Shown piece after piece: positions 44,654 to 46,925 of a stretch of DNA of 64,000 bases. A model generated the notes under the pieces. The model was given only the letters and a program-made list of their open reading frames with translations. It made no database searches and had not been told where the DNA came from. The DNA lies in the NCBI GenBank assembly GCA_039801245.1, contig JBDRUF010000001.1, positions 170-64,169 on the forward strand, written 5' to 3'. The translations under genes were made by a program, and so were the position numbers. Source of the DNA: a candidate division WOR-3 bacterium (GTDB taxonomy: Bacteria > Hydrothermota > Tepidihabitantia > Tepidihabitantales > Tepidihabitantaceae). Numbering within the stretch: the stretch's first letter is position 1; each line of letters begins with the position of its first letter.

Positions 44654-44681
44654 ATTATACCGTTTGGTGATTCTTTGTCAA
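44654..44681 (-). promoter_or_regulatory. Consensus sigma-70 promoter (TTGACA-16-TATAAT) driving the 1328-aa protein gene
   Basis: Perfect hexamers on the minus strand. About 95-nt leader with ggaggctaag-ATG RBS. Confidence 0.6.
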
Positions 44682-45112
44682 TGATTTAATTGCAACAGTT
44701 CCGTCCGTTCCCACCGCTGTTCCCTGACCAGGGCAACGAGGGGTTCTGCCCGAAGGATAGCCCTGGTTACTCTGAGGTAAGGGGTTAGGTAGTTTATCTG
44801 CGAGGCAATCTGCAAAATAGCAGTGACGGGGAAATAAGGGGCAGGTTTCAGGGCGCTCTTCAGGAGAGCCGGCATCACCGCCCTTAATCCTCAATCCCAG
44901 TGAGCCTTATAAGCCGTCTCTAACACCGCAATGGGAATGGTCGGGCAAATCACCCTGGTTGCCGCTATCAAGACCCAATTCCGGGCCGTGTCCAAAACCG
45001 CTTAGGGGACGGTCTCCCAGCAAAATTTGTTTTTGTGTTAAGTTGCGAAATTGCGATGGATAGGTTAAAATATCAGGGTTGTAATTTGTTTATGTTTATA
45101 TAAACTTAGCCA

Positions 45113-46120
45113 ATGGCACTTGCCCGTGACATCTTTGCCCAGTTGCGGAGTCTGCGGCTCAAGGCAAATCTTACCCAGGAGCAGGTTGCCGGTGCGCTTG
45201 GTCTCAAAGGGAAAAACAGAAGGAGTTTTATCTGCCAGTTGGAGAGAGGGGATATTGCCAATCCATCCTTGAAACTCATCCTTGACTATCTGCGTGCCTG
45301 TAGAGCAACGCCTGAAGACCTAAAAAACATCTTTGCAAACTACCTTTCCGAGCCTTTGCCGGTTCCGGAGAAGAAGGGCCGGGGACCAAGACCGAAAGAA
45401 AAGGATTTGCAGGTTGAGAGGATGCGACAGGCTGCGGCAATGGTGGGTTTAATCCAGAAACTTGAGATGGCGATTCACAATGAACTTAACCGGCTAAAAG
45501 TCGCTCCGTTCAGTTCTGTGCGCAGGAATGCGGTCAGGTTCTGCCGGGGTTTACTGCGCATCCTTGTCCAGGAGGAAAAGGGGCAGGGAACCAGTCTTGA
45601 AAAGAGGGTGGAGAGGCTAAAGAAAAGGCAGAGGGAAAAGGGTGTGCCCGAGGAGCTTTTAGAGCACCTGCAGGGTGTTGTTGCCCAGGTTTTTATCGGT
45701 CTGAAAAAGGCGGGGGAACTTGACAGGTTGCCGACGATAGAGGAGGCGGAAAGGGTATTGGTGCGCCCGGCAAGGAAAAGGGTTGTCAGTGATGAGTGGC
45801 TGTGCCGTTATGAGATGCAACAGGAGCGGTTAAAGGAGCTAAAGGAGTTTGAGAGGCGTTCGGCACCGATAATTGCGGGTGCGCTCAGGTTTTTGAGTCA
45901 GCAGGGTGTTTCTGGTTCAGATTTGGCTAACTACCGGGGGTTTATCAACAGTTTCTTAAACCTGGCGCGGCTCTATCCGCCCGATTCTGAGGAGCGGAGA
46001 AAAAGGGTTGAGTATAACCTAAAGACCTGTGCCCGCCCCAAACACAACCCCATCCTTCTCCGCAAACTCGCCCGGTTCATATTTGAGAAGTGGGATGGGG
46101 AAAAGCATTTTGCCGGTTGA
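45113..46120 (+). CDS. XRE-type HTH domain protein of unknown function; 3' end remodelled by a cassette insertion
   Basis: N-terminal LKANLTQEQVAGALGL...SFICQLERGD HTH. The C-terminus ...LARFIFEKWDGEKHFAG lies inside direct repeat 1. Confidence 0.5.
   Translation: MALARDIFAQLRSLRLKANLTQEQVAGALGLKGKNRRSFICQLERGDIANPSLKLILDYLRACRATPEDLKNIFANYLSEPLPVPEKKGRGPRPKEKDLQVERMRQAAAMVGLIQKLEMAIHNELNRLKVAPFSSVRRNAVRFCRGLLRILVQEEKGQGTSLEKRVERLKKRQREKGVPEELLEHLQGVVAQVFIGLKKAGELDRLPTIEEAERVLVRPARKRVVSDEWLCRYEMQQERLKELKEFERRSAPIIAGALRFLSQQGVSGSDLANYRGFINSFLNLARLYPPDSEERRKRVEYNLKTCARPKHNPILLRKLARFIFEKWDGEKHFAG
46067..46099. repeat. 33-bp perfect direct repeat, copy 1 (ctcgcccggttcatatttgagaagtgggatggg)
   Basis: Identical to copy 2 at 46799-46831. 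The two copies flank the MNT/HEPN pair. Confidence 0.85.
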
Positions 46121-46150
46121 CATTATAGCCCATCCCCGTATTATTAGATA

Positions 46151-46441
46151 ATGGATGTCAAATCACTGGTATTCGCCCGGCGCAAGGAGATTCTTGCCAT
46201 CTGCGAGCGGTATGGTGCACGCAATGTCCGTATTTTTGGCTCGGTTGCCCGTGGGGATGCGAGACCGGAAAGCGATGTTGACATCATCGTCCAATTTGAG
46301 CCGGGGAGAACCCTGCTTGACCATGCCGCGCTACTTTTGGAGTTGCGCAACCTCCTGGGGATAAATGTTGATGTCATCACCGAGCGCGGTCTGCGCCCCC
46401 GTATCCGCGAACGGGTTCTGCAGGAAGCAGTAGCCCTGTGA
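46151..46441 (+). CDS. Nucleotidyltransferase antitoxin (MntA-type)
   Basis: GSVARGDARPESDVDIIV Pol-beta-type NTase motif. 96 aa. Confidence 0.8.
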   Translation: MDVKSLVFARRKEILAICERYGARNVRIFGSVARGDARPESDVDIIVQFEPGRTLLDHAALLLELRNLLGINVDVITERGLRPRIRERVLQEAVAL

Positions 46442-46779
46442 GAAGCGACCGCGAACGGCTCCTTGATATCCTTGAGGCAATTGACAGCATTGAGCGCTAT
46501 ACCATTCAGGGCAGATCTGAGTTTGACCGCAGTGAACTCATCCAGACCTGGGTTGTTCATCATCTGCAGATAATCGGAGAGGCCGCGGCAAAACTCTCAT
46601 CGGCGTTCAGAAATGAACACCCAGAAATTCCCTGGACAGCAATTATCGCTATGCGCAATATCTTGATTCACGACTATTTCGGTATTGATACTGAAGAGGT
46701 ATGGGCAACGGTTGAGCGCGACCTGCCCGACCTCAAATCAAAGGTCAAAGCCATTCTTGAAACTCTACCCCGAGACTGA
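46438..46779 (+). CDS. HEPN-domain toxin (HepT/DUF86-type)
   Basis: R-x4-H-x-Y motif MRNILIHDY. GTGA overlap with the antitoxin gene. Confidence 0.8.
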   Translation: MRSDRERLLDILEAIDSIERYTIQGRSEFDRSELIQTWVVHHLQIIGEAAAKLSSAFRNEHPEIPWTAIIAMRNILIHDYFGIDTEEVWATVERDLPDLKSKVKAILETLPRD

Positions 46780-46798
46780 TAGTCTCCTTCACCAACAC

Positions 46799-46831
46799 CT
46801 CGCCCGGTTCATATTTGAGAAGTGGGATGGG
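46799..46831. repeat. 33-bp perfect direct repeat, copy 2
   Basis: Also encodes ...LARFIFEKWDGQRQG* in frame, i.e. the displaced original 3' end of the HTH gene. Confidence 0.85.
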
Positions 46832-46896
46832 CAAAGACAAGGGTAAAATTTGAGATGCCAGTTTTTTCTGAGAGCGAAAAAGGAGTGCGTGATAGA

Positions 46897-46925
46897 TTGA
46901 CAGTCAGGGTCGTTTGGGGATAATT
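46897..46925 (+). promoter_or_regulatory. Putative promoter for prfA-prmC (TTGACA-17-ATAATT)
   Basis: Located about 65 nt upstream of the prfA ATG. Confidence 0.45.

Follow-up and report, generated by a model that had tools for sequence, protein, structure and literature searches.

A toxin–antitoxin operon bracketed by a duplicated gene end in a candidate division WOR-3 bacterium, and how it may have entered the chromosome

How does a lone toxin–antitoxin (TA) operon enter a bacterial chromosome when no recombinase is found with it? The question is raised by a locus in a hot-spring candidate division WOR-3 bacterium. The locus lies in a 64-kb stretch of contig JBDRUF010000001.1 (assembly GCA_039801245.1, positions 170 to 64,169 of the forward strand), which is referred to here as the window. 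At this locus, a promoter and two genes are bracketed exactly by the duplicated end of a helix-turn-helix (HTH) gene, and no recombinase was found in the insert or in the surrounding genes screened. The locus has the architecture of an integrase-free, att-flanked islet similar to the cis-mobilizable elements (CIMEs), in miniature and in a protein-coding gene. The parts of the locus are listed below by window position.

45113–46120, + strand: XRE-family HTH gene, 335 aa, called as an open reading frame (ORF) with matches to Pfam HTH_31 (1e-7) and HTH_3 (2.5e-6).
46067–46099, + strand: direct repeat copy 1, attL-like, an exact match encoding LARFIFEKWDG, with which the last helix of the HTH protein ends.
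46100–46798, + strand: the insert between the repeats, 699 bp, read from the sequence as 17 nt, promoter, antitoxin gene, toxin gene and 19 nt.
46117–46144, + strand: sigma-70-like TA promoter, TTGACA-16 nt-TATTAT (11/12), from promoter scoring and sequence.
46151–46441, + strand: minimal nucleotidyltransferase (MNT) antitoxin, 96 aa, FGSVARGDARPESDVD, with the motif GSVARGDARPESDVD and a match to Pfam NTP_transf_2 (3.5e-15).
46438–46779, + strand: HepT-type HEPN toxin, 113 aa, with RNILIHDY (Rx4HxY) and a match to Pfam HepT-like (2.8e-29).
46799–46831, + strand: direct repeat copy 2, attR-like, a non-functional remnant, an exact match that is invariant in all strains.
46832–46846, + strand: displaced original HTH end, QRQG and a stop codon (ERQG in other strains), from the frame of ORF 46685–46846 and a weak comparison with the KRR ending of a relative, L002.

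The earlier note on this DNA had reported perfect 33-bp direct repeats, and exact matching bears this out. Across the whole window, the 33-mer CTCGCCCGGTTCATATTTGAGAAGTGGGATGGG matches exactly at 46067–46099 and 46799–46831, both on the + strand. No third copy occurs in the window at three or fewer mismatches, and 100 shuffles gave 0 matches, so that no chance matches are expected. A repeat search stretches the pair to 51 nt at 88% identity. Upstream of the 33-mer, anchored alignment found no similarity beyond chance for any allele (p 0.15–0.55). The perfect 33/33 repeat is restricted to the window strain and one other assembly (L011). Elsewhere in the species a single base separates the copies (GAAAAG in copy 1 versus GAGAAG in copy 2), and the repeat is longer by GAAA (4 nt) on the right, plus CAC (3 nt) on the left in one allele, which gives 37–40 nt; ancestrally the duplication measured about 37 bases. 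The 33-mer holds a weak dyad, CCCGGTTC-N8-GAAGTGGG, with 8-nt arms that are 6/8 complementary around an 8-nt spacer. A dyad of this kind has a calculated chance expectation of about 12% and was rejected as a meaningful symmetry. The fold z-score of the repeat in the window (-1.2) is not significant.

What lies between the two copies? The claim that only an MNT antitoxin and a HEPN toxin overlapping by GTGA are found there, with no integrase in the insert of about 700 bp, agrees with the ORFs and the Pfam matches: no further ORF with a family match occurs in the 699 bp, and a near-consensus promoter can be added to the content. The antitoxin matches a Thermus minimal nucleotidyltransferase (PDB 1WOT, 1.2e-32) and the PADLOC family PDC-S09 (4e-37). 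The GTG start of the HEPN gene overlaps the MNT stop codon (GTGA, 4 nt), and the HEPN family profile aligns the Rx4HxY region to Shewanella HepT (5YEP/6M6U). Only 6 nt separate the end of the TA promoter's -10 box from the MNT ATG, and this stretch (46139–46153) lacks a Shine-Dalgarno sequence; the TA mRNA is therefore probably leaderless. With GSx10DxD in the MNT protein, Rx4HxY in the HEPN protein and an MNT-first bicistron under its own promoter, the cassette is, judged by family membership, a complete self-promoted HepT/MntA (HEPN/MNT) operon. Order, 4-nt overlap and both motifs are the same as in the HepT/MntA type VII pairs of Shewanella oneidensis (SO_3165/SO_3166) and Thermus (1WOT). 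Compared with those pairs the proteins here are ordinary, and the nearest toxin relative in the databases is 72% identical.

The repeat also reports what happened to the HTH gene. The earlier note had described copy 1 as the current C-terminus of the HTH protein and copy 2 as the same residues followed by a different tail, which the ORFs confirm. The HTH ORF ends in ...LARFIFEKWDGEKHFAG and a stop codon, its C-terminus being LARFIFEKWDG plus EKHFAG, and the frame through copy 2 (ORF 46685–46846) reads ...LARFIFEKWDGQRQG before its stop. The insertion point lies right after the Gly codon of WDG, four codons before the original stop (three in the 37-nt form). Since the HTH stop codon (TGA, 46118–46120) sits within the -35 box of the TA promoter, the tail EKHFAG is a six-codon read-through into cassette DNA and not an evolved gene end. 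In an AlphaFold (AF2) model of the HTH protein (pLDDT 86, all-alpha), the last helix spans H313–331, the repeat encodes its end, and the altered tail is disordered. The insertion is thus predicted to spare the fold of the HTH protein. Copy 2 and the QRQG codons are a dead remnant beside the native prfA promoter.

Could the arrangement be an artefact, or a recent event? Both repeat copies and the TA pair are present in seven separate assemblies of this species (the window; L001, L010, L011, L013, L014 and L015), which are the window, three NCBI metagenome-assembled genomes and three Logan assemblies; copy 2 is also present on an eighth contig, which is short. An assembly artefact is therefore excluded. 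The 90% HTH protein cluster has five members, each 335 aa long. The density of single-nucleotide polymorphisms in the TA genes (0–6 per 630 nt) is similar to that of the flanks, and a recent sweep of the cassette among strains was rejected on this ground. Given this density and the presence of both copies throughout the strains, the insertion is older than the divergence of the strains and is fixed. The cassette is now a fixed islet and is probably immobile.

The closest TA-less relative (L002/L003) has an HTH protein that is 79% identical and carries one copy of the segment (31/33 identical), with no second copy in its 8.9-kb locus. Its HTH protein ends in WDGKRR, three residues past WDG, versus four in the displaced QRQG or ERQG tail and six in EKHFAG. 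KRR has one arginine in common with QRQG and nothing in common with EKHFAG, although this is a weak comparison. More distant HTH homologues end 0–3 residues past the W[DPG] motif. From the single copy and the native-like tail length in this relative, copy 2 and its tail are read as the original gene end. The idea that a cassette entered the 3' end of the HTH gene and supplied a replacement C-terminus is supported by the single copy and the tail of similar length in the TA-less sister species. Two copies in a TA-less relative, which would have implied an unrelated duplication, were not seen in L002/L003.

The search for a recombinase covered the insert, the precomputed Pfam families of genes called up to 6 kb to each side and 30 further window ORFs, and it found none. 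Five of these 30 have no family match, and a few long window ORFs were left out. Where the scanned ORFs matched a family, they proved to be housekeeping genes: pyruvate:ferredoxin oxidoreductase (PFOR), DnaJ, HflX, RF2, Rho, glycolysis, Lgt and pyrimidine genes. The HTH protein itself was ruled out as a hidden recombinase: its model is all-alpha and matches no recombinase fold. Its only fold matches are to the N-terminal XRE HTH, similar to restriction-modification C-proteins, and its helical domain is unmatched. Integron traits are missing, with no attC in the 19 nt between the HEPN stop and copy 2 and no intI family match in the window ORFs screened. So are those of transposons, with no transposase and no terminal inverted repeats at the insert ends; the duplication here is 33–37 nt. 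Of the traits of an integrase-mediated island, the flanking repeats are present and the integrase gene is missing from the insert. The retained attL/attR-like copies together with the lack of integration genes are traits of a CIME.

Does this footprint occur elsewhere? A small survey with crude ORF calls took in 80 metagenome loci with HEPN relatives 55–69% identical, 42 of which had enough flank. The 500 nt upstream of MNT were compared with the 500 nt downstream of HEPN at a local alignment score of at least 20. Direct repeats flank 12 of the 42 cassettes versus 0 of 51 same-length pseudo-cassettes in the same loci, and inverted-orientation controls gave 1/42. The excess has a Fisher's exact p of 2.7e-5 (1.3e-4 with related contigs collapsed), which suggests that the footprint is common among related cassettes.

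The repeats in the survey are 23–369 nt long and 80–100% identical, with sequences unrelated between loci and a variable distance from the cassette. Such variety of sequence and length speaks against both a transposase of fixed stagger and an att site common to all loci. No end motif common to the repeat-flanked cassettes was found. Several repeats belong to an ordinary gene next to the cassette: that of L063 is the last 369 nt of an enoyl-CoA hydratase (ECH) gene, that of L086 is the last 70 nt of a CAAX-protease-like gene and that of L082 covers 140 nt close to where an SBF transporter gene begins. Near-perfect repeats occur in L074 (108/108), L091 (23/23) and L082 (138/140), and the P0086 loci, a further context, have an imperfect repeat of 49–57 nt. 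A right edge 7–22 nt past the HEPN stop recurs in L063, L074, L081 and L091. Hairpins of the attC type in the gene-end repeats were not significant.

Three of the loci are arrays with three gene-end copies each, at these contig positions.

L063: 104–468, 2252–2620 and 3341–3709.
L074: 2420–2648, 3362–3523 and 4067–4411.
L081: 2117–2228, 2958–3063 and 3818–3929.

The order in L063 is hydratase gene, TA pair, 369-nt fragment, D-Ala-D-Ala carboxypeptidase gene and fragment, and both fragments begin at the same hydratase residue. The L063 copies show 45 differences, 37 of them at third codon positions (pS 0.40, pN 0.033). This third-position bias indicates that the copies diverged within working genes and not by decay after a local duplication. 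L074 holds three MNT/HEPN cassettes (one truncated and one inverted) between 3'-end fragments of a gene for a 148-aa protein. L081 and L074 have a repeat-cassette-repeat block in common that is about 97% identical, and the sequence outside this block is unrelated; the repeat travels with the cassette.

Other repeats and contexts were also met in the survey. Intergenic repeats were recorded in L049 (783–840/1531–1587), L059 (726–797/1562–1633) and L079 (2485–2604/3448–3568), and that of L049 holds a promoter-like TTGACG-17 nt-TATAAT. By eye these three are palindromic or hairpin-like, with a fold signal only in L059 (z -2.2, weak) and a high inverted score only in L049. A Nitrospira MNT/HEPN pair (P0036; L102–L111, for example L102 1772–4778) has no flanking direct repeat. 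This pair (HEPN 65% identical, 23 contigs) lies between transposase genes of the Y1_Tnp type (IS200/IS605 or associated with repetitive extragenic palindromic [REP] sequences) and the IS66 type. Its context suggests a different vehicle for the same TA family.

How, then, did the cassette of the window arrive? The explanation that we favour, at a probability somewhat short of even, is insertion by recombination, through a single crossover made in trans, with the gene-end segment carried by the incoming DNA. The incoming DNA would have brought its own copy of the short gene-end segment together with the cassette. One reciprocal crossover in this segment (Campbell-type, attP x attB-like) would then have placed the cassette between two copies. 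Since no recombinase lies in the cassette or the screened window ORFs, the crossover would have been made in trans, by host homologous recombination or by the recombinase of a helper element no longer present. Recombination between the copies would delete the TA operon. Cells losing the operon would be poisoned by the longer-lived HEPN RNase, and the insert would be kept in every sampled strain. Retention by toxin addiction is proposed here from family membership. A crossover of this kind accounts for the window, the arrays with shared boundaries, the divergence under selection in L063 and the variety of the repeats. The L063 divergence is as expected of incoming DNA that carries its own gene end.

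Several observations weigh against this explanation. No same-species empty allele was found among the five cluster members and seven assemblies, and the sister-species locus is not syntenic downstream of the HTH gene. One copy of the segment, as the earlier note had expected of an empty site, is present in the TA-less sister, at a non-syntenic site with other downstream genes. A free attP-like 33-mer was not found, and neither viral nor JGI metagenome contigs matched a wobble-degenerate form of this sequence. Nor was a second genomic context of the cassette, or a circle, found: no other locus has the exact MNT and HEPN proteins, and the HEPN protein that comes next in the database search is only 72% identical. 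The TA genes are not compositional outliers. Their GC skew has a z of -1.1, with 32% of coding pieces lower; a foreign composition was accordingly rejected, and the local dip in GC skew at the cassette is no evidence of foreign origin. A foreign origin of the insert-side copy, which a longer, diverged homology upstream of the 33-mer would have indicated, has no sign in the sequence here, and a plain target duplication would fit the window equally well. The perfect or nearly perfect repeats of L074, L082 and L091 are also what an in-situ duplication would give. The repeats of L049, L059 and L079 may be of a different kind (attC, REP or promoter type). Toxin activity and addiction are assumed from family membership.

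The suggestion in the earlier note of a mobile cassette was not borne out as regards current mobility, since there is a single context only. Only one of the viral contigs holds a TA relative, at 46% identity. Of the two origins that the earlier note had offered, a compact mobile cassette or the remnant of a larger island, both remain, and some of the evidence favours the compact cassette.

Could the target simply have been duplicated in situ? Here only the TA operon would have been inserted, with 33–37 bases of the target duplicated during insertion. The duplication would have come from the filling-in of a staggered break, or from replication that switched templates, left the chromosome to copy the cassette and re-entered 33–37 nt behind its exit. 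We consider this rather unlikely. It would suit the window copies, which are identical or one base apart and lose similarity abruptly at both edges, and the survey, in which repeat lengths vary widely and several repeats are perfect (L074, L091 and L082). It is also favoured by a templated mutation at the same junction that shows that template switching has occurred. The divergence of L063 under purifying selection is unpredicted by it, although the same pattern could arise if the working copy were later exchanged for another allele. Arrays with a common inner boundary would need repeated events at one nucleotide. Moreover, we know of no bacterial transposition system that gives duplications of 33 to 369 nt.

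The mutation in question lies just upstream of and within copy 1.

46048–46100, + strand: strain-specific quasi-palindrome, in which the arm 46048–46066 is the reverse complement (15/19) of 46082–46100 in copy 1.

Relative to the other strains, a 17-nt stretch immediately before copy 1 has ten substitutions in the window and in L011 (alleles compared: L001 6936–6988 and L013 3082–3134). Eight of the ten create complementarity (p 0.0034). Gene conversion from copy 2 was rejected as the source of the patch, whose sequence instead matches the 3' half of copy 1 in reverse complement. The patch has the signature of a templated quasi-palindrome mutation, and this signature implies that strand or template switching has acted at the junction. 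The hairpin that it forms is not unusual in stability. The majority alleles (L001 6928–7013 and L013 3074–3159, equivalent to window 46040–46125) fold at -28.9 kcal/mol (z -2.9 versus shuffles). The structure in these alleles spans the HTH end, copy 1 and the -35 region of the TA promoter, and the G-to-A difference in copy 1 completes a UUCA/UGAA stem. It is possible that this structure insulates the TA promoter from HTH read-through.

Alternatively, an island with an integrase may have entered the 3' end of the HTH gene and been reduced by deletions to the TA pair and both att sites. TA genes resist deletion, and such a remnant would be a CIME. An attL-like repeat that completes the gene, an attR-like repeat with the displaced end and a lack of recombination genes match the definition of these elements (PMC5704250), and a streamlining of islands to TA-only islets has been proposed (Belot et al., 2026; PMC13617665). 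The weak dyad of the 33-mer resembles a recombinase core, although it is expected by chance at the level of about 12% given above. We judge this origin quite unlikely for the window. Trimming of the insert to 17 nt on one side and 19 nt on the other needs two precise deletions that spared both repeats, and the same tight right edge recurs in four loci of the survey. No integrase was found in the screened window ORFs or near 11 other repeat-flanked cassettes, where 25 large ORFs held no tyrosine or serine recombinase. The lack of a viral or JGI metagenome match to the 33-mer counts against this origin as well.

Homology-facilitated illegitimate recombination is improbable. In this case a linear fragment from a related donor, with a partial HTH gene followed by the TA operon, would have paired on one side with the resident HTH gene, its far end being joined illegitimately at the start of the 33-mer so that the resident gene end stayed behind. 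Such an event explains the working gene end directly before the cassette promoter, the abrupt start of the remnant and the third-position divergence of L063, and it requires no recombinase. No HTH homologue adjoins a TA pair outside the species (10 family members), and independent joins would not give the identical inner boundaries of the L063 array. Lastly, that the repeat has nothing to do with how the TA operon arrived, being a local gene-end duplication or chance, is very improbable: it draws on nothing beyond the lacking same-species empty site, and against it stand the zero matches expected by chance, copies that bracket the cassette exactly, the one copy in the TA-less relative and a bracketing that recurs at unrelated loci versus 0/51 controls.

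The crossover in trans may have a wider counterpart. MNT/HEPN operons, and some neighbouring cargo, may form an unrecognised class of recombinase-free 'gene-end cassettes' that enter via host recombination, a proposal that we put forward tentatively and with more doubt than belief. Each unit would bring along a copy of some tens to hundreds of bases from the end (or the start) of an ordinary host gene and cross over within that stretch, leaving the gene whole and a remnant behind. If such entries recurred, arrays like those of integrons would grow, in which a gene is followed by cassettes and fragments in alternation. Loss of a cassette through recombination of its flanking repeats would be counter-selected by the toxin, and the window would stand as a minimal case with one cassette.

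What kind of gene was entered? The HTH gene is no stable chromosomal landmark: it is a rare accessory gene that is missing at the syntenic site in two relatives. Two further features belong here.

44685–46846, strand not assigned: block of about 2.2 kb with the HTH upstream region, HTH gene, TA cassette and displaced end, absent from relatives; boundaries approximate.
46897–46924, + strand: native prfA promoter, TTGACA-16 nt-GATAAT, conserved in relatives, from promoter scoring and aligned by eye with L123, L124 and L125.

In L124 and L125/L126 (prfA 82% and 80% identical), a divergent Por_Secre_tail gene (a type IX secretion system [T9SS] tail) lies directly upstream of prfA, with neither HTH nor TA genes. 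The spacing from this gene to prfA is 315 nt in L124 (4686–5000) and 151 nt in L125 (5850–6000). Downstream, prfA, prmC, NAD kinase, CDP-alcohol phosphatidyltransferase, aminotransferase, ThiC and PSP1 are kept in both lineages. Upstream, L124 is like the window (DUF4321 and a 1334-aa T9SS protein), whereas L125 differs. The divergent -35 boxes TTGTCAAT and ATTGACA are 11–96 nt apart in the relatives and lie at 44675–44682 and 46896–46903 in the window, so a block of about 2.2 kb lies between them. Read from these comparisons, the TA insertion belongs to the history of a small accessory block made up of HTH and TA. No repeat flanking the whole block was found. A 12-nt inverted pair around it (44626/46899) was set aside, as about eight such pairs are expected by chance in the region. 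A resemblance by eye of the TA promoter region to the L124 spacer (TTGCCGG...GCCCATC) was treated as chance (BLAST E 6.7 or worse).

Ten proteins in 5.8 billion make up this very rare HTH family, whose neighbourhood differs in every genome. In other WOR-3 genomes the genes downstream of HTH homologues are a type II methyltransferase flanked by unknown genes (L020 6214–9268), a TPR-TIR protein (L005 7400–8926) and two unknown genes (L002 7078–8421). No repeats were found around the cargo downstream of these homologues. This rare XRE-HTH family may be a regulator with variable, defence-like cargo.

How does the locus compare with known systems? Many integron gene cassettes carry TA pairs. The cassettes here are like them in being small cargo without a recombinase that forms arrays, and unlike them in having no attC hairpin, no intI or attI and, in the window, a promoter of their own. 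CIMEs and other decayed integrative elements have lost the integrase but still have attL and attR, and tandem accretion takes place at gene 3' ends (PMC5704250). As in CIMEs, one repeat completes the target gene, the other holds the displaced end, recombination genes are absent and arrays occur in related loci. Unlike CIMEs, the insert is 699 bp with one operon, no cognate element with an integrase was found in viral or JGI metagenome contigs, and the repeats across loci are unrelated, 23–369 nt long and within ordinary protein genes.

In the orphan toxin/immunity modules downstream of rhs and cdiA genes, an incoming fragment of the resident gene with its cargo displaces the old end and builds arrays (PMC3967940). 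Homologous recombination takes place between those fragments, and the modules resemble the arrays of cargo separated by gene fragments seen here. In rhs/cdiA, however, the repeated gene is the toxin gene and its active domain is swapped, whereas here the target is unrelated to the cargo and few terminal residues change. One of the TA-only islets of Photorhabdus lies between two copies of a 24-bp res-like palindrome (Belot et al., 2026; PMC13617665). That islet and the cassette here are both lone chromosomal TA operons between short duplicates, absent from close relatives and without a mobility gene. The Photorhabdus duplicate resembles a Tn3 res site and is element-derived, whereas the duplicate here is coding sequence of the interrupted gene.

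Full-text literature searches returned no description of TA operons bracketed by duplicated host-gene ends, the Photorhabdus islet coming nearest. The route by which TA genes integrate into chromosomes has been called unclear, with arrival on larger elements and subsequent streamlining inferred (PMC13617665). For this genome alone the meaning is modest: a fixed accessory insertion in an accessory regulator gene. If the favoured explanation is true, TA-only islets need not derive from bigger islands, and their route of entry becomes testable. An excised circle, if formed by recombination between the repeats, would have a junction of the HEPN stop, 19 nt, one repeat and GAAAAGCATTTTGCC. The footprint described here may help to explain how lone toxin–antitoxin genes enter chromosomes.

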